DNA from: Bacteroidota bacterium | GTDB taxonomy: Bacteria; Bacteroidota; Bacteroidia; B-17B0; Aurantibacillaceae | DNA length: 64,000 nt | Direction: 5' to 3' | NCBI GenBank assembly: GCA_018267475.1 | Contig: JAFDYI010000031.1 | Location: 50,261-114,260 of the forward strand | Part shown: in pieces, positions 1,247-64,000 of the stretch | Layout: each line of letters begins with the position of its first letter | How positions within the stretch are numbered: position 1 is the first letter of the stretch | The notes under the pieces: model-generated | Told to the model about the DNA's origin: nothing | Seen by the model: the letters and a program-made list of their open reading frames with translations, nothing else | Databases searched by the model: none | Translations under genes and position numbers: made by a program

Positions 1247-2830
1247 ATGACTGCTACCGAAGAAATAAAACGCCGCCGCACCTTTGCCATTATTGCGCAC
1301 CCCGATGCCGGCAAAACTACTTTAACCGAAAAACTGCTGCTGTTTGGCGGGGCCATTCAAACAGCCGGTGCCGTAAAATCAAACAAAATAAAAAAAAGCA
1401 CGGCCTCCGATTTCTTAGAAATTGAGCAACAACGGGGTATTTCTGTTTCTACCTCGGTAATGGCTTTTGAGTATAAAAACAAAAAAGTAAACATATTAGA
1501 TACTCCCGGTCACGAAGATTTTGCTGAAGATACCTACCGCACCCTTACTGCCGTAGATAGCGTTATCATGGTTATTGACTGCGTAAAAGGCGTAGAGCCG
1601 CAAACCCGGAAGCTATTAGAAGTGTGCCGCATGCGCAAAACACCCGTTATTGTCTTTATCAATAAAATGGACAGAGAGGGGCGCGATGCTTTTGACCTTA
1701 TGGACGAACTGGAAAAAGAACTAAAAATAAAAGTACGTCCGCTTAGCTGGCCTATAGGCATAGGTAAAACCTTTAAGGGAGTTTATAATGTTTATGAAAA
1801 GTCGTTAAACCTTTTTACAAGCGATGAAAAACAAACCATAGCCGAATCCGTAGAAATTACTACTCTAAATAAAGAAAATGTAAGTCAGTACCTTAACGAA
1901 GATTTTACCAACACCCTGCTTTCGGATATTGAAGTGGTAGAAACCGTTTACCCTCAGTTTAAAGCTGATGACTATTTAAAAGGCGATATTTGTCCTGTAT
2001 TTTTTGGTTCGGCAGTAAACAATTTTGGCGTACGCGAACTGCTCAATTGCTTTGTTGATATTGCCCCCTACCCTCTTATACGCGAAACCGAACAACGCAT
2101 GGTAGATCCCTTTGAACCTAAATTTAGCGGTTTTGTTTTTAAAATTTTTGCCAACATAGACCCCCGCCATCGAGATAGGATTGCTTTTTTACGTATTTGC
2201 TCCGGTACTTTTGAACGCAACAAATATTACTTTCACAATCGTGAAAAAAAAGAAATGCGTTTTAGCAACCCTACCGCTTTTTTAGCTCAAAGCAAATCGG
2301 TTATTGATGAAGCATATCCCGGCGACATAGTGGGCTTATACGATAGCGGAAACTTTAAAATAGGCGACAGCCTTACCGAAGGCGAGTTGCTCCATTTCAA
2401 AGGCATACCCAGTTTCTCACCCGAATTGTTTAAATATGTGGTAAACCAAGATCCCATGAAAACCAAACAATTACAAAAAGGTTTAGAACAATTAACCGAC
2501 GAAGGAGTGGCTCAACTGTTTACAAAAAAACAAGATGGGCGAAGAATTTTAGGTACCGTGGGCGCTCTGCAATTTGAAGTATTGCAACACCGATTAAAAA
2601 GTGAATACAACGCCTCATGCGGATACGAATCGATACAACTACATAAGGCCTGTTGGATAAAAAGCGATGACAAAAAACACTTAGATACTTTTATGCAAGA
2701 GCGTAGCAATTACATAGCTTTTGATAAAGAACAGCGCCCTGTTTTTTTAGCCGAATCGGCATGGCTGTTGCAAATGGCACAAGAAAAATACCCCAACATT
2801 CAGTTTTTCTTTACCAGCGAACTGAATTAA
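1247..2830 (+). CDS. prfC: Peptide chain release factor 3
   Basis: [62 protein letters not shown]; start moved to ATG 1247. Confidence 0.97.
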
Positions 2831-10332: not shown

Positions 10333-11394
10333 TCACTCCTCCAGCGCTTTATGATTGCTGTATTTACGCCACTTGTCTATCAGTTGTTGCATATCATCAG
10401 GCAAAGCACTTGTAAACCTCATGTTTTTTTTGCTAACAGGGTGCTCTACCTCCAAAAGGGCTGCGTGTAGGGCTTGTCTGGGGCAAAGCTCAAAACAGTT
10501 TTCTACAAACTTTTTGTACGAAGCGGTTTTCATTCCTTTTAGTATTTGGTTGCCACCGTAGTCGGCATCGTTAAAAATACGGTGCCCTATCGATTTTAAA
10601 TGTACCCGTATTTGATGGGTGCGTCCTGTTTCAAGAGTACACTCCACAAGGGTTACGTAGCCAAAACGCTCCAGCACTTTATAGTGGGTTACGGCGCGTT
10701 TACCCATGCTTTCGTCAGTAAATACGTCCATCAGCTTGCGGTTGCTTTGATTTCTACCCACGTGGGCGGTAATGGTGCCCTCATCGTTTAGCACATTGCC
10801 CCATACTAAGGTTAGGTATTTTCTTGTTAAATCGTGATGAAAAAATTTATTTCCTAAAAAGGTAAGGGCTGCTTCATTTTTTGCCACAATTAAAATGCCC
10901 GAAGTATTTTTATCAATACGGTGTACCAAACCCGGTCGGGGTGCGTATATATTGGTGCCTACCTTGCTGTGTGCGGCAGGCAGGTTTTCAAAATAATACA
11001 GCAAGGCGTTTACTAAGGTGCCATCATCGTGTCCAAAAGCGGGATGCACGACCATGCCGGCCGCTTTGTTTACTATAAGAATATCGGCATCTTCATACAC
11101 AATATCTAAGGGAATGTGCTGCGGTATCAGTTCAAAATTTTTGGGTGGATGTGGTAATACAATTGTAATCACATCAAAGGGCTTTACCTTGTAGTTTGAT
11201 TTTACAGCATGGTTGTTTACCCTTATGTTACCTGCATCGGCGGCTACTTGTATCTTGGTGCGCGAGGCATGAGCCAATTTATGCAGTAAAAACTTATCAA
11301 TGCGCAATAAGGCTTGCCCTTTATCTACCTCTATGCGATGATGCTCAAAAAGTTCGGGTTCTTCCTCAAAGCTGAGTTTGTTTTCTTCTTCCAT
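10333..11394 (-). CDS. rluD: RluA-family 23S rRNA pseudouridine synthase with S4 domain
   Basis: LRIDKFL (S4), VNKAAGMVVHPA, RPGLVHRIDKNTSG (catalytic Asp), LETGRTHQIRVH. Confidence 0.93.
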   Translation of the reverse strand: MEEENKLSFEEEPELFEHHRIEVDKGQALLRIDKFLLHKLAHASRTKIQVAADAGNIRVNNHAVKSNYKVKPFDVITIVLPHPPKNFELIPQHIPLDIVYEDADILIVNKAAGMVVHPAFGHDDGTLVNALLYYFENLPAAHSKVGTNIYAPRPGLVHRIDKNTSGILIVAKNEAALTFLGNKFFHHDLTRKYLTLVWGNVLNDEGTITAHVGRNQSNRKLMDVFTDESMGKRAVTHYKVLERFGYVTLVECTLETGRTHQIRVHLKSIGHRIFNDADYGGNQILKGMKTASYKKFVENCFELCPRQALHAALLEVEHPVSKKNMRFTSALPDDMQQLIDKWRKYSNHKALEE

Positions 11395-11395
11395 C

Positions 11396-13372
11396 TTAGC
11401 GACTAATCAGCAGTTTTTGAGTACTTACATAGCCTTTGTTTGACAATACTTTTACTATATAAGCCCCGTTGGCTATGTCGCTCACATCTATTTGTGCTGT
11501 TCCATTTTGCAAGCCGGGTTTTGTGTTTTGCAGCACCTCGTTGCCCAACATATCGTATATTTTTACTTCGGTTATTAAATCATTAAGTATAGAAACTTGC
11601 ACATTAGTAGCTGCCGGGTTAGGGACTAATTTTACCGAATTATTTTGTGCCGAATACTTTTGTATAGAGGCTGTAGCCGCCGAATCGCCAAAGACGGGAC
11701 GTATCATTAAAGAGCCGGTATAATCCGGGTATAAAGCAGCCGGAAACACATACCAGGCTCCCGATGTATAACGAAACATATTTTGATAAAAATTATTATT
11801 CTTATCAAAACCAACCGCTAAAGGGTTGTACGAGTTGGGCACTACGCCTATATAAAAGGTGGTACCGGCGGGCAATATCACCGGTTTTACAAACTGATAA
11901 CGCAAAAAATTATTTACCCGTAAGGGCACGCCCGGCAAGGTAGTATCTGCCGGAAAGTATGGATAACGTGTTAGCGTATCGGCATACATTGGGGTATTGT
12001 TGGGCACGCCTCCGTTATCGCCCCATACGTTGATATTAAAACTGGTGGTTTTTAAATACTTTACATCATAAATAGGGTCGAAAAAAATATCCATGGCACG
12101 TAAGGTATCCGCTACATTCAGCGTATATTTTACCGCCACATAATCATTACAAATACCAAAACCTGCCTCGGCGCTGCCATCATCATAGGCATAGTAATTG
12201 CCAAATATTTGATTAAATTTTATGGTATCGTTTACAAACAAAAAAGGAAGCTGAGAGGGTTGTTGTAAATAAAATTTAGTATAAAAAGTATCGGGTGCTG
12301 TTATAACAGGATAGGTAAAGCCACCTAAAGAGGGGGCTGCTACACTAGCATTATTGCAAAAACCATTAGTGCCAAAATAACCTAAGTTTACACTTCCATT
12401 ATAGGTACTATCTAGCCTTTGAGTGTGCCTGTAAATGGTGTAATAGGTAGATACATTTTGGTGGTTTACATCGTTGTAATTATTTCTTAATGCAACGCCT
12501 ATATTGGTTTTCATATCCGAAGTGCCGGCGTATTGCTTGTAGGGCATTTGGCTGTAATTTTTTAAAGGGCTTGTTAAATTATACGAGAAGGTAAAATCGC
12601 CAAAAATAGTATCGGTATAGCTGCGGTTGTGATTTAAATACACCACATCTAAATGCCAATGGTTTACATCTCCACAAGCGGCCGATAGGTTTCTAAACCT
12701 AAACTGAAAGTTTTTTTTGAAGTAGGAGGTGTCGGTTATGGGTATCATTACCAAATGCCAGGAGCTATCAGTAGGGGTGTAGCCCGAGTGCTGCCACATT
12801 AAATTCCATATAGAGTCGTTAGGGCTGTAAAACTCCAATATCAAGGCATCATTGGTGCGCGGAGGCTCGTAATAACCCATAGGTTGGTAATAAAAGCTAA
12901 GATAAATACTATCTGCCGGCGATAATTGCTGAAACGAAGCCGGAATAGAATCTAAGCGAATAAGAACCGAAGCCAAGGTATCTGAAGGGACGCTGCCCAA
13001 GGTGTTAAAATAATTTCCACAGGCAATGGTTTGGTTATCGCTGTATGGGTAGCCGTATTTATCTAAACCATCAAAAGTAGCTACGCCCAAGGTAGGGGGC
13101 GCCACCGCCTTAGTGCGGTTTATATACACTGATTGTGAGTTTTGCCATTTGCTAACATCGGGGTATGGCCCCTGGTAGGAGAACTCCTCATAAAAAGGAA
13201 GAATAAAACCCGAAGGAGTGCTTTGCACGCGGTCTTGTGGTAATGGCTCTTTTGTTTTTATTTGCTTTCTATAATCAATAATTTGCTGGTTGCGGTGCAT
13301 GGGCATAAGTTGGGCCTGCATATATGCGGAAGCAAAAACAAGAAAACAGAAAAGATTTATTTTATTTTTCAT
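11396..13372 (-). CDS. T9SS type A sorting-domain (CTD) protein, function unknown
   Basis: Signal peptide; C-terminal 'LVPNPAATNV...IYDMLGNEV...DVSDIANGAYIVKV...TQKLLISR'; no recognisable catalytic domain. Confidence 0.85.
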   Translation of the reverse strand: MKNKINLFCFLVFASAYMQAQLMPMHRNQQIIDYRKQIKTKEPLPQDRVQSTPSGFILPFYEEFSYQGPYPDVSKWQNSQSVYINRTKAVAPPTLGVATFDGLDKYGYPYSDNQTIACGNYFNTLGSVPSDTLASVLIRLDSIPASFQQLSPADSIYLSFYYQPMGYYEPPRTNDALILEFYSPNDSIWNLMWQHSGYTPTDSSWHLVMIPITDTSYFKKNFQFRFRNLSAACGDVNHWHLDVVYLNHNRSYTDTIFGDFTFSYNLTSPLKNYSQMPYKQYAGTSDMKTNIGVALRNNYNDVNHQNVSTYYTIYRHTQRLDSTYNGSVNLGYFGTNGFCNNASVAAPSLGGFTYPVITAPDTFYTKFYLQQPSQLPFLFVNDTIKFNQIFGNYYAYDDGSAEAGFGICNDYVAVKYTLNVADTLRAMDIFFDPIYDVKYLKTTSFNINVWGDNGGVPNNTPMYADTLTRYPYFPADTTLPGVPLRVNNFLRYQFVKPVILPAGTTFYIGVVPNSYNPLAVGFDKNNNFYQNMFRYTSGAWYVFPAALYPDYTGSLMIRPVFGDSAATASIQKYSAQNNSVKLVPNPAATNVQVSILNDLITEVKIYDMLGNEVLQNTKPGLQNGTAQIDVSDIANGAYIVKVLSNKGYVSTQKLLISR

Positions 13373-56561: not shown

Positions 56562-57800
56562 TTATTGAAGGGCGGTACTTATTTTGCGAGTAGCCCCCAG
56601 TTTGTTTTGTATATATGTTTTTATTTTTTTTGATGTTTCTACAGTTGCTTCTTCTTTACAGGAAAGCAGGGTATCAAAAAAAGAATACAATTCTTCTTCT
56701 GAAGCTATTTCCGTTGCGATACCTATTTGTAAAGACTCTTGAGCTTCTATAAATTTTTTATGATGCGGGCCAAAAGCAACCGGCACTTCGTAAACCAAAG
56801 CTTCTAAAATATTGTGAATTCCATTAGTGAAACCGCCGCCTATATAAGCAGCCGCGCCATAACGGTAAATGTGAGATAAAATGCCGATGGTATCTATAAT
56901 TAAAACCGAAGAAGATGCTGCTTGTTGTGTTTGGGTGTATAAGGCGCAACTTACCTCTACCTCATTTTTTAGCTGCATGATAGCAGAAGCATGTATTTCA
57001 TGGGGGGCTATTATTAGCTTAACATTGGGATATTTTTCTTGTATTCTTTTAAAAGCAGACAACAATAGTTCTTCATCTTTTTTCCACGTGCTTCCGGCTA
57101 TTAAAACTTTAGAGTGTGCGCAAAACGCTTCTATGATAGGTAGTTCTTTCTTTTGTTGTGCAATTTCAAAAACTCTATCGAAGCGGGTATCGCCGGCTAT
57201 CTGTACGTTTTTTAACCCTTTTTCTTTTAATAGTTTAAACGAGTTCTCATCTTGCACAAAGATAGTTTGATACCAGGTAAGCGAAGTAAAAAAAATGCGC
57301 CCATACCATTTAAAAAAATGCTGTTGTTCTCTAAAAACAGCACTAATAAGATAGGTAGCTATTTGCTGCTTTTTTAATTCTTTTAAATAATGAAGCCAAA
57401 ATTCATATTTTACAAAAACTACTTGTTGCGGTTTTACAAGGGTAATAAATTTTTTTGCATTTTTTTTTGTATCTAAGGGTAAGTAAAAAACGGCATCGGC
57501 CCATTCATAATCTTTCCGTATTTCGTAACCCGAAGGCGAAAAAAAAGTAAGGACTATTTTTTTTTCTGGATTTTCTTTTTTCAGCTGTTCTATCACCGGC
57601 CGGCCTTGTTCAAACTCGCCTAAAGAAGCGCAATGAAACCAAACTACACAGCCTGATATGTTTTTTTCTTGTATTGTTTTTTGCATACAAAAAAAAATAT
57701 CCTTTCGCCCCTCTACCCACCGCTTTGCTTTGCCATGAAACAAAGAGGCTGTTTTTATAAAAAGGCTATAAAAAAAAACACCAAGATTATACAGCAGCAT
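56562..57800 (-). CDS. waaA: 3-deoxy-D-manno-octulosonic acid (Kdo) transferase
   Basis: VWFHCASLGEFEQ, LTFFSPSGYE, YLPLD, FVKYEFW, GDTRFDRV, IAGSTW, IIAPHE, GGGF...HNILEA; start ATG 57800. Confidence 0.93.
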   Translation of the reverse strand: MLLYNLGVFFYSLFIKTASLFHGKAKRWVEGRKDIFFCMQKTIQEKNISGCVVWFHCASLGEFEQGRPVIEQLKKENPEKKIVLTFFSPSGYEIRKDYEWADAVFYLPLDTKKNAKKFITLVKPQQVVFVKYEFWLHYLKELKKQQIATYLISAVFREQQHFFKWYGRIFFTSLTWYQTIFVQDENSFKLLKEKGLKNVQIAGDTRFDRVFEIAQQKKELPIIEAFCAHSKVLIAGSTWKKDEELLLSAFKRIQEKYPNVKLIIAPHEIHASAIMQLKNEVEVSCALYTQTQQAASSSVLIIDTIGILSHIYRYGAAAYIGGGFTNGIHNILEALVYEVPVAFGPHHKKFIEAQESLQIGIATEIASEEELYSFFDTLLSCKEEATVETSKKIKTYIQNKLGATRKISTALQ

Positions 57801-57802
57801 AT

Positions 57803-58567
57803 TTAGTTGTAATAAAACTCTTTGGGTGCTTTTTTGTATAAAGGCAAAAACCATCCCAACCTAATTCCTATTAAAATATCGTTTCTTTTTTTAGAGTCGG
57901 GCTGCATCGTATCGTATTGATAGCCACGTAAACCCGTAGTAAATCCTTCTTGAAAAGTAAACCCTCCATATATATTTACAATTCTGTTTTTAGCCAAAAA
58001 AGCATAGCCAATAAATTGTTCCATGGCAAAGCCCCCCGTAAGGCGGTCGTACCCTTTTTTCATGTCGCCGTTTATGGCAGCTAAGTTTCTTCCTATATCC
58101 GCAATATGAATTTGATGTTCCATATAACCAAAGCCGGCATAGGCCATCAGCCCGCTGTTTTTATTAGTACCCAACGCTTTTATAATACCGCCTATTATCG
58201 CATACACCGTAAAGCCACGCTCGTTTAGCCTTATATTAGCAGGTGTGCCTCCCGATCCGGTTATGGAGCCATAGCTGTTGTACATATAGTTTAAAGGGTT
58301 TTCGCGTACGTTACCACTAAAAAAATAATTGCCTTCTACGCCAAAAAGCATGTTGTTTTGTGTTTTATATACAATAGGAACACCCACATTTAAATTGCCT
58401 GCAAAGCGGCTAGCCATATCGCCAAAGGGTAAATCGCCCTCCAGATGTATGCCTACCATTACAAAATGATGGCTGCTGTCTTTATATTCTGTATGGCGCA
58501 CAAAGCGCTGCGAGAAAGCAGAGATAAAGAGCAACAAAAAGAAGCATACAAAAAAGTATTTTTTCAT
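57803..58567 (-). CDS. Hypothetical outer-membrane beta-barrel protein
   Basis: Signal peptide; GDMASRF, HQIHI, KKGYDRLTGG, IGIRLGWFLP; start ATG 58567. Confidence 0.65.
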   Translation of the reverse strand: MKKYFFVCFFLLLFISAFSQRFVRHTEYKDSSHHFVMVGIHLEGDLPFGDMASRFAGNLNVGVPIVYKTQNNMLFGVEGNYFFSGNVRENPLNYMYNSYGSITGSGGTPANIRLNERGFTVYAIIGGIIKALGTNKNSGLMAYAGFGYMEHQIHIADIGRNLAAINGDMKKGYDRLTGGFAMEQFIGYAFLAKNRIVNIYGGFTFQEGFTTGLRGYQYDTMQPDSKKRNDILIGIRLGWFLPLYKKAPKEFYYN

Positions 58568-58710
58568 TGAATAGTTGTGTGGTAAAACATTTTTAATTCC
58601 ACACAAAAGTACCATTATTTAGCTGCGAACAAAAAAACATGAGCAAGAATGCTTTTTTACTGATTGCTAAACCCAAAGATTTTTTACTTTTACAGCCTGA
58701 AATAAAAAAT

Positions 58711-59832
58711 ATGATACAAATAGAAGCTATTACTTTCCCTAACAAGATAAAAGAGTTTATTGACTTTCCACACGATTTATACGAAGGAGACGCCGCTTAT
58801 GTACCCGAACTTTTTTTGGCTCAAAAAGACTTACTAAACCCAAAAAAACACCCTTTTTACGAACACGCTAAGTTGCAAATGTTTTTAGCCTACAAAGGGG
58901 CTAAGGTGGTAGGGCGTATTGCCGCCATAAAAAACGGAACCCATATAGAATTTACCCAAACCAAAGAAGGTTTTTTTGGTTTTTTTGAATGTATTGAAGA
59001 CTATGAAGTAGCAAAAAAACTATTTGATGCAGCACAAGAATGGCTAAAAAAAGAAGGACTTACAAAAGTGGTGGGGCCTACCAGTTTTTCTACCAACGAA
59101 GTATTTGGCTGGCATATAGATGCTTTTGATGTTCCGCCTATGATGGTGATGGGCTATAACAAACCCTATTATATAAAATTTGCAGAGCAATACGGGTTTG
59201 CTAAAAAAGTAGATTTTTTTGCCTACTACATCAAAGACAATACCCTTTCGGATAAATCATTAAAAGTGGTAGATGCCTTTGAGCAACGCTTAAAAACGAA
59301 AGGCATTACCATTCGTACAGTAAACATGAAACGCTTTGACGAAGAAGTGGAACAGGCGCATAAAGTTTTTAACTCGGCTTGGGATAAAAACATGGGGTTT
59401 GTGCCAATGACTAAAAATGAATTTGTGCACCTTTGCCATGAAATGAAAATGATTATGAACAAAGACCTTTGCTTTGTAGCCGAGCACGAAGGAAAAATGA
59501 TTGGATTTTCATTTTCATTTCCGGATATCAACCAAATTTTTAAAACCATCAAGCGCGGGCGTTTATTACCTACCGGTATTTTTAAATTATTATTTAACCG
59601 AAAAAAAATAAATAAAATACGCGTGGTTGTATTGGGTGTTATTGAAGGATATCGAAAGCTAGGTATAGAAGCTTGTTTTTATGCAAAAACCATAAAATAC
59701 TGCCTTAATAACGGCATTGTTGCAGCCGAAGCTTCTCTTATCTTAGAAACAAACGAAATGATGAATCAAGGTTTAAGAAATATCAATGCCGAGGTATATA
59801 AAACCTATAGAATGTACGAGAAAGAACTGTAA
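58711..59832 (+). CDS. Tandem-GNAT acyltransferase (YghO-like; resembles bacterial ceramide synthase bCerS)
   Basis: EFIDFPHDLY, YVP, NPKKHPFYEH, VVGRIAAI, GFFGFFECIED, VVGP, MGYNKPYY, WGF-like 'NMGFVP', PDINQ, GVIEGYRKLG, EASLILETN, YKTYRMYEK; start ATG 58711. Confidence 0.75.
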   Translation: MIQIEAITFPNKIKEFIDFPHDLYEGDAAYVPELFLAQKDLLNPKKHPFYEHAKLQMFLAYKGAKVVGRIAAIKNGTHIEFTQTKEGFFGFFECIEDYEVAKKLFDAAQEWLKKEGLTKVVGPTSFSTNEVFGWHIDAFDVPPMMVMGYNKPYYIKFAEQYGFAKKVDFFAYYIKDNTLSDKSLKVVDAFEQRLKTKGITIRTVNMKRFDEEVEQAHKVFNSAWDKNMGFVPMTKNEFVHLCHEMKMIMNKDLCFVAEHEGKMIGFSFSFPDINQIFKTIKRGRLLPTGIFKLLFNRKKINKIRVVVLGVIEGYRKLGIEACFYAKTIKYCLNNGIVAAEASLILETNEMMNQGLRNINAEVYKTYRMYEKEL

Positions 59833-59843
59833 TATCAAGGAAG

Positions 59844-60761
59844 ATGTGGAGCCGTGTGATAAAAACAACAACACCCATAGATGTTATTACTATACTATAT
59901 ATGGGATTATCAGCAGGATATATTCTTGCAGGATACAATAAAATAGAAAATATAGAGTCCCTCTTTTTGATGCGAGTTGGCGTTTTAGTTTTCATGTTTT
60001 TTTTGTTGTATGCTGAAAGCAAATTAAAATTTACAAAAATAAAATGGTTCGTTAGCTTTCTTAGAAATGTGTACCCTTTTTTCTTCCTTAATTATTTTTA
60101 TACCGAAACTCATTACACTAAAAACAACCTTTTTCCACAGGACATAGACGCCGTTTTTGCTTCTGCCGAACAAAGTATATGGGGATTTCAACCTAGCTTA
60201 CAATTTTCGGAACATGTAAATAACCCTTTGTTTAGAGAATTGATGTATATGGGATATTTTTCTTTTTATTTAATGATACCCACACTTTGTATTGCTTTCT
60301 ATTTAAAGAATAAAAACACCGCAAAACAGCCTCTTTTTATTATGGCTTGCAGTTTTTACCTGTTTTATTGTTTATATCATTTTATACCGGTGTTAGGGCC
60401 TCAATATTATTTTAACAGCTACGCTTACAATATGGAGCCTCGTTATTTTTTTGGAAGTATTATGCATTACTTACAAATACATGTAGAGTACCCTACCGGC
60501 GCTTTCCCTAGTTCTCACGTAGGCATGGCTTTTGTTTTTTGTTATGTAACCTACCATTGGCACAAAACGTTGTTTAAAATTGTTTTACCTCTTGCTCTAT
60601 GTATTTGCTTTGCTACCGTTTATATAAAAGAGCATTATTTAATAGATGTGCTGGCCGGTTTGGCAACAGCGCCTGTTTTTATATACCTAAGCAAAAAAAT
60701 ACATACTCTTATAGAGGCTTGTTTACTTTCCTTTAAAAAAGAAGAATCTTGTTTAAGCTAG
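59844..60761 (+). CDS. PAP2_3 / AUR1 (inositol phosphorylceramide synthase-like) membrane enzyme
   Basis: Multiple TMs; 'IPVLGPQY', 'GAFPSSHVG' and 'HYLIDVLAG' (AUR1 D3/D4-like catalytic His-His-Asp); lacks the KxxxxxxRP motif of phosphatase-type PAP2. Confidence 0.75.
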   Translation: MWSRVIKTTTPIDVITILYMGLSAGYILAGYNKIENIESLFLMRVGVLVFMFFLLYAESKLKFTKIKWFVSFLRNVYPFFFLNYFYTETHYTKNNLFPQDIDAVFASAEQSIWGFQPSLQFSEHVNNPLFRELMYMGYFSFYLMIPTLCIAFYLKNKNTAKQPLFIMACSFYLFYCLYHFIPVLGPQYYFNSYAYNMEPRYFFGSIMHYLQIHVEYPTGAFPSSHVGMAFVFCYVTYHWHKTLFKIVLPLALCICFATVYIKEHYLIDVLAGLATAPVFIYLSKKIHTLIEACLLSFKKEESCLS

Positions 60762-62895: not shown

Positions 62896-63639
62896 CTACC
62901 AATCTTTGTCAATAATTTTTGATTTTGCCTCCCCTTCTTTATTTTTCTTTTTTAGCTGTAATTTTTGTTCGTTATTTTTTAAAGCATCAAGCATGCGTTG
63001 AGCCTCTTCTTTGCTCATTTGAGGTTGCTGGGGTTGCCCTTTTTGGTCTTTATCCTCTTTTTTGTTTTGCTGTTCGTCTTTCTTTTTATCTTCTTTTTTA
63101 TCTTGCTTTTGCTTATCGTCTTTCTTTTTATCTTCTTTTTTATCTTGCTTTTGCTTATCGTCTTTCTTTTTGTCGTCTTTTTTATCTTTATTTTTTTTAT
63201 CTTGTTGCTGTTGTTGTTGAAGTTTTTTTAAGGTATAAGCTAAATTGTATCGGGTATCTTCGTCTTTTGGGTTAAACTTTAAAGCGTTTTTGTATGCTTT
63301 AATGGCTTCTTCGTATTTTTTTGTTTTCAAATAGGTATTTCCTAAGTTATGAAAAGCTTTAGCTAAGGTATCTTTATTGTTGGTATTTTTTATGTACGTA
63401 TCATACTGCCCCGTGGCATCGTTGTACTTTCCTTGCTTATAGTAGGCGTTTCCTAAATTAAAATTAGATTTATAATAATTGTTTTTTTCTTTTAATGCTT
63501 CAGTGTATTTTTTTTCTGCTTCGGCGTATTTCCCCTCGTTGTAATGTTTGTTTCCTTCACGCAGTTCTTGTTTTTCTTTCTGAGCAAAAGAATACGTTAC
63601 CTGAAACAAAAAGAATAGTATTGAAATTTTTTTTATCAT
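62896..63639 (-). CDS. batC: BatC-like TPR protein
   Basis: TPRs (GNKHYNEGKY, FNLGNAYYKQGKY, FHNLGNTY), DEDTRYNLAY, K/D/Q-rich linker, MSKEEAQRMLDAL, ends DKDW; ATGA overlap with batB. Confidence 0.85.
   Translation of the reverse strand: MIKKISILFFLFQVTYSFAQKEKQELREGNKHYNEGKYAEAEKKYTEALKEKNNYYKSNFNLGNAYYKQGKYNDATGQYDTYIKNTNNKDTLAKAFHNLGNTYLKTKKYEEAIKAYKNALKFNPKDEDTRYNLAYTLKKLQQQQQQDKKNKDKKDDKKKDDKQKQDKKEDKKKDDKQKQDKKEDKKKDEQQNKKEDKDQKGQPQQPQMSKEEAQRMLDALKNNEQKLQLKKKNKEGEAKSKIIDKDW
63074..63171 (-). repeat. 42-bp intragenic tandem repeat (about 2.3 copies) in batC
   Basis: CGTCTTTCTTTTTATCTTCTTTTTTATCTTGCTTTTGCTTAT repeated exactly, encoding KKDDKQKQDKKEDK. Confidence 0.9.
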
Positions 63640-64000
63640 TTTTGAAACAAGTTTAGTTTTTTCCACCAACTGTTGATGCGCTCGCTTATTACAAATTCTA
63701 TTATCAAAAAAAGCAAAGCTACCCCTGCAAACCACTGAAACTGATCGTCATAATCAGTGTACATATTGCTTTCAAATTGTTTTTTTTCCAATTCATTTAT
63801 TTTATTAAAAACAGCATCTAGGCCTACATCAGCGTTGTTGGCTTTTACATATACACCGTTAGCTGCGCCCGCTATGCTTTGTAGTAGTTGCTGATTTAGT
63901 TTAGTAACAACGGTATTGCCTTCTTTATCTTTTTTATAACCCGATGGCACGCCGTTGTTGTATATAGGTATGGGCACTCCGGCATCAGAACCAATTCCTA
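63636..64000 (-). CDS. batB: BatB-like VWA-domain protein, 3' end (runs off the window end)
   Basis: GMPIPI...YKKDKEGNTVVTKLN, LEKKQFE...DYDDQFQWF, C-terminal TM. Confidence 0.85.
   Translation of the reverse strand, partial: GIGSDAGVPIPIYNNGVPSGYKKDKEGNTVVTKLNQQLLQSIAGAANGVYVKANNADVGLDAVFNKINELEKKQFESNMYTDYDDQFQWFAGVALLFLIIEFVISERINSWWKKLNLFQK

Follow-up and report, generated by a model that had tools for sequence, protein, structure and literature searches.

Sphingolipids of the Bacteroidota reach host tissues and modulate immunity, and the enzymes for their inositol and galactosyl head groups are known. The closest described system for ceramide formation is that of Caulobacter, whose ceramide region comprises CC_1165-1162, LptF2/G2 (CC_1156/1155), and the N-acyltransferase CC_1154. 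The homologs listed by Padilla-Gomez et al. ("aca: CC_1154, yghO ECD_02850, Swit_3908...") are required for dihydroceramide synthesis (PMC9386255). CerR of Caulobacter has been reported to be periplasmic, serine palmitoyltransferase (Spt) of Bacteroidetes has been reported to use acyl-CoA, and the sphingolipid genes of gut Bacteroidota have been reported as dispersed. For the head-group step, mutation of H255, H294, or D298 in yeast Aur1 abolishes inositol phosphoceramide (IPC) synthesis. Here, we describe a pair of genes that may combine both steps in a 64-kb stretch of contig JAFDYI010000031.1 from a Bacteroidota bacterium. This whole stretch, hereafter the window, was analyzed through its open reading frames (ORFs) and their translations. 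The pair consists of a GNAT gene and a PAP2_3 gene:

58711..59832, plus strand: GNAT gene (373 aa; ORF as called 58639..59832), encoding a tandem-GNAT N-acyltransferase of the bCerS/YghO family, a putative bacterial ceramide synthase (bCerS)
59833..59843, plus strand: spacer of 11 nt (TATCAAGGAAG) between the GNAT stop codon TAA, which ends at 59832, and the PAP2 start codon ATG at 59844
59844..60761, plus strand: PAP2_3 gene (305 aa), encoding an AUR1-like integral membrane protein of the subfamily here called window-type, a putative ceramide phospho-head-group transferase

The pair probably encodes a ceramide synthase and a phosphosphingolipid head-group transferase that would draw on a bulk phospholipid donor. 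The original prediction had described two plus-strand genes 11 nt apart and had suggested that they couple ceramide formation to head-group transfer. The coordinates bear out this arrangement, and the identification of both proteins by family, fold, and synteny supports the interpretation. The short spacer suggests that the two genes are co-transcribed; a terminator scan found no terminator-like site between them that was better than in shuffled sequence. More than 5000 homologs of the GNAT protein were found, nearly all with 373-374 aa and an MI.IEK N-terminus. Because these lengths and starts agree, position 58711 is the correct GNAT start.

Membership of the GNAT protein in the bCerS/YghO family is indicated by full-length homology. 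In tblastn searches, the protein aligned with E. coli YghO at 35% identity (100% coverage, 373 aa, E 4e-66, annotated replicons) and with an "N-acetyltransferase" of Sphingomonas parapaucimobilis at 32% identity (E 2e-53). A hidden Markov model (HMM) of the Bacteroidota GNATs scored these two proteins at 294 and 247 bits, respectively. The Sphingomonas gene follows genes for an NAD(P)H-binding protein, an acyl carrier protein (ACP), a class I/II aminotransferase, LptF, and LptG, and E. coli yghO lies beside genes for a fatty acyl-AMP ligase, an epimerase, an ACP, an aminotransferase, and LptG/LptF. Both neighborhoods share the layout of the Caulobacter ceramide cluster. Judged by sequence homology, the GNAT protein is a new member of this already known family; its tie to CC_1154 is transitive via YghO but full-length.

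The motif series read from the GNAT sequence in the original prediction is present in full, namely FIDFP (residue 16), HPF (47), VGRIAA (67), GFFGFFE (87), MGYNKPYY (147), PDINQ (271), GRLLPTGIFKLL (283), RKLGIEA (315), and ILETNE (344), and most of these motifs are invariant in a 30-sequence alignment. One of them, which we take to be motif A of the GNAT fold, is located as follows:

59653..59673, plus strand: RKLGIEA, a CoA-pyrophosphate-binding type motif (R-x-x-G-x-(G/A/E)) in the C-terminal GNAT half, with R315, G318, I319, and E320 invariant in the alignment

The tandem-GNAT architecture is confirmed by an AlphaFold2 model (pLDDT 84.6, pTM 0.84), whose best Protein Data Bank (PDB) matches are tandem-GNAT enzymes over the whole length (TM-score about 0.6, E values down to 7e-15). 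These include 5kf1 (a glucosamine N-acetyltransferase), 2wpw (a clavulanate tandem GNAT), 7q3a (MAB_4324), MshD, and FemX. The protein has no segment that resembles a transmembrane (TM) helix (maximum 19-residue hydropathy 1.19). Among Pfam families, only Acetyltransf_1 matched, marginally (E 4e-4); no NCBIfam model matched, and sequence searches of the PDB with the single sequence or a profile returned nothing useful. When 1.84 billion representative proteins were searched with a profile, the GNAT family was recovered in 10,232 clusters; the cluster names looked up were almost exclusively "hypothetical" or "GNAT superfamily". Natural fusions occur in the family, including a 780-aa protein that joins a Spt-like Aminotran_1_2 domain to the GNAT (P0282) and a 940-aa protein that joins the GNAT to an AMP-binding acyl-activating domain (P0352). 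In a plasmid collection, the genes around E. coli yghO (L087, NZ_MG591698.1, labeled plasmid, and matches H6 and H7) make up a full ceramide set of the Caulobacter kind, LptF/LptG paralogs included. The label "plasmid" is also borne in this collection by some records of 4.8-4.9 Mb, which are evidently chromosomes. In Phocaeicola massiliensis and Prevotella sp. oral taxon 299, the GNAT homologs (matches H28 and H30) are 27-28% identical to the window protein, below the 35% of YghO, and these Bacteroidales copies may represent a divergent branch or a paralog.

The gene neighborhoods of GNAT homologs strongly support the view that Bacteroidota use this family as their ceramide synthase. When one genome per species was scanned, at least 596 GNAT loci were obtained, of which the best 80 were analyzed (loci are numbered with the prefix L). 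Most of these belong to an operon type, seen in Chitinophagales, Sphingobacteriales, and Cytophagales, that is exemplified by a tight ten-gene operon of Chitinophaga pinensis (L069). Its genes encode, in order, an Aminotran_1_2 protein, the GNAT, an NAD-dependent epimerase, MIPS, PgpA, GtrA, a DUF5686 protein, a CDP-alcohol phosphatidyltransferase with DUF4833, a fatty-acid hydroxylase, and a PAP2_3 protein. The first gene product matches the Spt model NF047600 at 706 bits (cut-off 640), and the phosphatidyltransferase scores above the cut-off of the NCBIfam model for the BT_1523 phosphatidylinositol phosphate (PIP) synthase. The PAP2_3 protein of the operon, hereafter the inositol type, scores 303 bits (E 2e-90; cut-off 480) with NF052609, the curated model of phosphoinositol dihydroceramide (PI-DHC) synthase. 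Among the 68 operon-type loci, in which the GNAT is 51-57% identical to that of the window, Spt is encoded directly upstream in 63 of 64 informative cases, a CerR-like reductase directly downstream of the GNAT in 64 of 65, and an inositol-type PAP2_3 within 10 kb in 38 of 48. These three associations agree with the original description of the window protein as a bCerS-like acyltransferase. The spt-GNAT-cerR operons often run on into an inositol-lipid cluster that resembles BT_1522-1526. Within this cluster, an 848-aa DUF5686/CarboxypepD_reg protein is kept between GtrA and PIP synthase (L069 14321-16867; most of L019-L081), and DUF4833 either is fused to the PIP synthase or comes next after it (L069 16890-18170; most of L019-L081). 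Two loci under proteobacterial or actinobacterial names of metagenome-assembled genomes (L053, labeled Beijerinckiaceae, and L061, labeled Williamsia) are typical Bacteroidota spt-GNAT(-cerR) operons, and these labels are probably binning errors.

The window belongs to a second architecture. In the window clade, which comprises 13 loci whose GNATs share at least 63% identity with that of the window, Spt is upstream in 0 of 11 informative loci, and a window-type PAP2_3 gene lies directly downstream of the GNAT in nine of 11 and after one CerR-like gene in the other two. Since this PAP2 subfamily is downstream of the GNAT in all 11 informative close loci, the adjacency of the two genes is not due to chance. 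The two architectures are mutually exclusive among the 81 loci. The GNATs of the window clade are 50-55% identical to the operon GNATs, which matches the inter-order spread within the latter (50-63%), and they are therefore treated as orthologs rather than as a diverged paralog. In close relatives (L001-L012, L082, and L083; e.g., L082 8158-14509 and L001 4540-10134), the pair is set in a conserved lipid gene set, with a 4'-phosphopantetheinyl transferase gene upstream and genes for a malonyl-CoA:ACP transacylase-like protein, a FabA/ApeI-like protein, a ketosynthase, and a ketoreductase downstream. Genes for HMG-CoA synthase, enoyl-CoA hydratase, and fatty-acid hydroxylase are often added, and the 64-kb window has none of this whole set. 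These neighbors, which resemble fatty acid synthase (FAS) genes, may supply special acyl chains in the relatives.

For the second protein of the pair, Pfam PAP2_3 matched at 62.4 bits (cut-off 27). The AUR1-like GAFPSSH and HY..D motifs noticed earlier in this multi-TM protein were recovered, and they carry a triad of two histidines and one aspartate (H-H-D):

60498-60518, plus strand: C2 motif GAFPSSH, in which H225 aligns to Aur1 H255
60633-60647, plus strand: C3 motif HYLID, in which H264 and D268 align to Aur1 H294 and D298

All three residues are invariant in a 30-sequence alignment of window-type PAP2 proteins. A PDB search with the single sequence returned no match, and a profile was needed to reach Aur1. 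With the 30-sequence profile, the best solved relative was yeast Aur1 (E 1.7e-6, 71 residues), followed by PgpB (1.8e-3) and, behind it, LpxE. An AlphaFold2 model (pLDDT 93.9) has eight helices, and Foldseek ranked two cryo-EM structures of Aur1 first, 9vj4_A (E 3e-4, TM-score 0.57/0.62 over 296 columns) and 9ivc_A, which were the sole matches below 1e-3; PgpB (2.6e-2) was third and LpxE fourth. The comparison with yeast AUR1 proposed in the original prediction is thereby answered, with Aur1 as the nearest solved structure by both profile and fold. The helix positions and the distribution of lysine and arginine put the triad on the periplasmic side, and in the model it is predicted to lie at the periplasmic face of the inner membrane. 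This placement agrees with the periplasmic location of Caulobacter CerR.

PAP2 phosphatases have the C1 motif KxxxxxxRP and the C3 motif SRxxxxxHxxxD, and PAP2 proteins with a C3 lacking SR and a C1 lacking K...RP are read as transferase-like. The window protein may alternatively be a lipid phosphate phosphatase that hydrolyzes rather than transfers, for which ceramide-1-phosphate, a sphingoid-base phosphate, a phosphorylated head-group intermediate, undecaprenyl diphosphate, and lipid A 1-phosphate are possible substrates. Membership in the PAP2 superfamily and the fold matches to PgpB and LpxE are compatible with such a function, as are the nearby lipid A gene waaA and a DAGK_cat-type lipid kinase gene located about 10 kb away in one relative (L084). 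However, no NCBIfam model matched the protein, and the weak matches to undecaprenyl-diphosphate phosphatase (26 bits) and LpxE (14 bits) are far under the cut-offs of 229 and 177. Moreover, the alignment of 30 window-type sequences contains no conserved KxxxxxxRP block at C1, that is, no invariant Lys/Arg-Pro motif. The C3 block of the subfamily is ATVYIK(E/A)HYLID (A-T-V-Y-I-K-x-H), not S-R-x5-H; it resembles the STMYLTHHYFVD of Aur1 (S-T-M-Y-L-T-H-H), with an invariant T258 where phosphatases have an arginine. Across the phylum, the subfamily is linked to bCerS and CerR genes and not to lipid A genes, and waaA is a neighbor in no related locus. A phosphatase is thus unlikely.

The original prediction had also compared the PAP2_3 protein with the AUR1-like gene of Bacteroides thetaiotaomicron. 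Remote homology over the full length was found, as a profile of the window type aligned with that of the inositol type at 98.3% probability (E 1.3e-14, about 19% identity); orthology to BT_1522 was rejected. NF052609 did not match the window protein at E<=0.1, compared with the 303 bits of the Chitinophaga operon protein, and an HMM of the inositol type gave the window protein only 9.9 bits. The inositol type is also a much closer match to Aur1 (E 8e-22, 243 residues aligned) than is the window type, which aligns with Aur1 over only 71 residues. Both PAP2_3 paralogs occur together in one locus, L008, where the inositol type (1885-2829, minus strand) sits in a divergent MIPS..PIPS cluster (PIPS, PIP synthase) upstream of the GNAT gene, and the window type (11119-12027, plus strand) is directly 3' of it. 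A similar inositol-type cluster is found in L007 (234-1178, minus strand), where the contig ends before any downstream PAP2 gene. Because L008 carries both types, they are not interchangeable. On the evidence of these comparisons, the window protein belongs to a paralogous, uncharacterized sister subfamily of the bacterial and fungal IPC synthases.

These findings bear on the alternative that the window protein is itself a PI-DHC synthase like BT_1522 or Aur1, with phosphatidylinositol made elsewhere in the genome. This would suit the rank of Aur1 among solved structures, the full-length homology to the inositol type, and the inositol-lipid clusters just upstream of the GNAT gene in L007 and L008. 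However, the model scores, the coexistence of the two paralogs, and the poorer fit of the window type to Aur1 all speak against it, and an inositol head group is less likely because the window protein is no ortholog of BT_1522. Searches of the 64-kb window with phmmer and the Chitinophaga operon proteins also found no spt, cerR, MIPS, PIPS, or PgpA, which bears out the earlier statement that spt, cerR, and inositol genes are absent from the window. At window-type PAP2 loci in general, MIPS, PIP synthase, and PgpA are lacking, except in L008, where they occupy the opposite strand together with a separate PAP2 gene of the inositol type. Inositol transfer by the window protein is therefore decidedly improbable.

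The window-type subfamily extends well beyond the window clade, and in every context examined, including Bacteroides finegoldii and Prevotellaceae, its gene adjoins bCerS and/or CerR. A CerR-like gene is located between the GNAT and PAP2 genes in L001, L013, and L084. In L084, the order is GNAT, CerR-like, PAP2, and major facilitator superfamily transporter, and the PAP2 protein is 35% identical to that of the window. In contigs of gut and oral Bacteroidales, the window-type PAP2 gene overlaps or abuts a CerR-like gene. A two-gene operon of CerR-like and window-type PAP2_3 genes with overlapping frames was observed in human-associated Bacteroides and Prevotellaceae (L088-L092). In B. finegoldii (L092 7970-9933, NZ_OY725910.1; UHF62_RS05330/05335), the CerR-like gene overlaps a PAP2 gene whose product is 30% identical to the window protein. 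The NAD(P)-dependent oxidoreductase of this species scores 215 bits to the CerR-like protein of Chitinophaga, and its PAP2 protein reaches 304 bits with the HMM of the window type, compared with 6 bits for that of the inositol type. Those members of the subfamily that carry a source name belong to Prevotellamassilia, Alloprevotella, and Bacteroidaceae, and the generic annotation "phosphatase PAP2 family protein" is used throughout. No head-group synthesis genes were found in the contexts of L084, the gut and oral Bacteroidales, or B. finegoldii.

A pathway consistent with these patterns would begin with the GNAT protein, either soluble or peripheral, which would N-acylate the sphingoid base made by Spt with acyl-CoA or acyl-ACP. 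The product would be an (oxidised/oxo)dihydroceramide, formed on the cytoplasmic side of the membrane, which would then be reduced and flipped before the PAP2_3 step. There, H264, activated by D268, would take the phospho-head group from a glycerophospholipid with release of diacylglycerol, by way of a phosphohistidine intermediate like that proposed for Aur1, and H225 would assist in transferring the head group onto the ceramide C1 hydroxyl. The donor is most likely a bulk phospholipid, because the PAP2 subfamily has no accompanying head-group synthesis genes and coexists with the inositol-type paralog.

All Bacteroides species tested make phosphoethanolamine dihydroceramide (PE-DHC; PMC10191378), and no homolog of ethanolamine phosphorylceramide (EPC) synthase was found (PMC8791184). 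The literature searched, which is incomplete and thus no proof, names no bacterial synthase of ceramide phosphoethanolamine (CPE), EPC, or PE-DHC and no PAP2 link in P. gingivalis. We infer that phosphatidylethanolamine (PE) is the most likely donor, yielding CPE, with phosphatidylglycerol as the second choice. The reasons are that the inositol type forms a paralog of its own, invariably found with MIPS, PIPS, and PgpA, and that all tested Bacteroides make PE-DHC while the literature searched names no enzyme for it. As a tentative extension, the window-type PAP2_3 proteins could be the missing bacterial CPE (PE-DHC) synthase, taking phosphoethanolamine from PE in lineages that range from sludge Bacteroidia to gut Bacteroides and Prevotellaceae; we regard this assignment as possible but short of probable.

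Several points weigh against reading the pair as a ceramide synthase and a head-group transferase. The majority of PAP2 proteins act as phosphatases, and the window-type subfamily is annotated by NCBI only under the generic phosphatase name given above. The GNAT family is very large (10,232 clusters), and a ceramide synthase role is not necessary for every member. Neither spt nor cerR is present in the 64 kb, spt lies beside the GNAT gene in none of the 11 informative close-clade loci, so that a sphingoid substrate has to be assumed in this genome. In addition, no computed result fixes the head group, which the original prediction had rightly left open. The idea that the window-clade GNAT instead N-acylates another amine, for instance an amino acid or amino-lipid, using chains that the FAS-like genes provide, so that the pair makes a non-sphingoid lipid, can appeal to this lack of adjacent spt, to the FAS-like gene set around the pair in relatives, and to the occurrence of this huge family in many taxa not known as sphingolipid makers, but it is highly improbable given that the identity to GNATs of spt-cerR operons equals the inter-order spread of undoubted orthologs, that a CerR-like gene separates GNAT and PAP2 in three loci, that the partner PAP2 subfamily goes with CerR in Bacteroides and Prevotellaceae, and that the window itself has no FAS-like genes.

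Upstream of the pair, the window contains the following features:

58616..58710, no strand: divergent intergenic region between a 270-aa ORF and the GNAT gene, where the promoter is presumed to lie
57803-58615, minus strand: 270-aa ORF with a signal-peptide-like N-terminus, directly divergent from the GNAT gene
56562-57854, minus strand: waaA (Kdo transferase domain, E 2e-41), behind the 270-aa ORF

No promoter was identified in the intergenic region with a sigma-70 scan, which performed no better than on shuffled sequence and does not cover Bacteroidota promoters. The 270-aa ORF matches no Pfam or NCBIfam family and is not kept beside the GNAT gene in related loci. At its 3' end, it shares 52 nt with the longest waaA ORF, and given this overlap, the true waaA start is probably further downstream than that of the longest ORF. 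The earlier statement that the pair is divergent from a waaA operon was thus correct in that waaA is on the minus strand, but the immediate divergent neighbor is the 270-aa ORF, with waaA behind it. A connection to lipid A through waaA was rejected, as this neighborhood is not conserved in any related locus. Beyond waaA on the minus strand is a nitroreductase gene, and 3' of the pair is recG in convergent orientation. Further along the window (62896-63735, minus strand), a 279-aa protein combines a TPR-like N-terminal half with a long, highly repetitive K/D/Q-rich tail (KKDDKQKQDKKEDKK repeats). The locus is present in activated-sludge and wastewater metagenomes, and the activated-sludge runs contain 100% of the sampled words.

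For the window itself, the outcome is an ordinary but well-supported lipid-biosynthesis annotation. More broadly, one uncharacterized AUR1-like subfamily, tied to bCerS or CerR, is singled out as a good candidate for a head-group step that has no assigned enzyme. If its members are indeed PE-DHC synthases, this step would make the most abundant Bacteroides sphingolipid. The gene pair of B. finegoldii (UHF62_RS05330/05335) is a cultured, genetically tractable carrier that makes the head-group question directly testable. Many environmental Bacteroidota have spt-bcerS-cerR as a tight operon joined to the inositol-lipid cluster, unlike the dispersed genes reported in gut Bacteroidota.

Compared with known systems, the GNAT protein is closest to bCerS (Caulobacter CC_1154/CCNA_01212 and E. 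coli B YghO/ECD_02850), with which it shares homology along the entire sequence (373 aa aligned with YghO at 35% identity), the GNAT fold, and family-level linkage to spt and a CerR-type reductase. Its lack of a TM segment is also in line with the peripheral-membrane bCerS, which has been described as having no predicted TM segment. The Bacteroidota operons differ in that a dedicated ACP, an acyl-ACP synthetase, and LptF/G paralogs are all missing from them, which fits the reported use of acyl-CoA by Bacteroidetes Spt. The window GNAT gene further differs in standing apart from spt and cerR, with a PAP2_3 gene as its partner. The Chitinophaga-type operon has an orthologous GNAT (about 50-57% identity) and the same succession of ceramide synthesis and a PAP2_3 head-group step, whereas the window has only two of its ten genes and a PAP2_3 protein of the other subfamily. 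The PI-DHC synthase BT_1522 (NF052609) and yeast Aur1 are like the window-type PAP2 in their PAP2_3 family, overall fold, H-H-D triad, and linkage to ceramide synthesis genes. However, the window type is a separate paralog of the BT_1522 type (about 19% identity), falls below NF052609, has no accompanying MIPS, PIP synthase, or PgpA, and coexists with the BT_1522 type in L008; no Kei1-like partner is known for it, none having been sought. Finally, the animal CPE synthase SMSr provides a parallel for the proposed reaction, in which a PAP2-type enzyme would transfer a phospho-head group from bulk PE to ceramide. The resemblance to SMSr is weak (19.4 bits with PAP2_C, the sphingomyelin synthase family, below the cut-off of 27; Foldseek 8ijq, E 0.26, TM-score 0.31), and the parallel concerns the type of mechanism rather than family membership.

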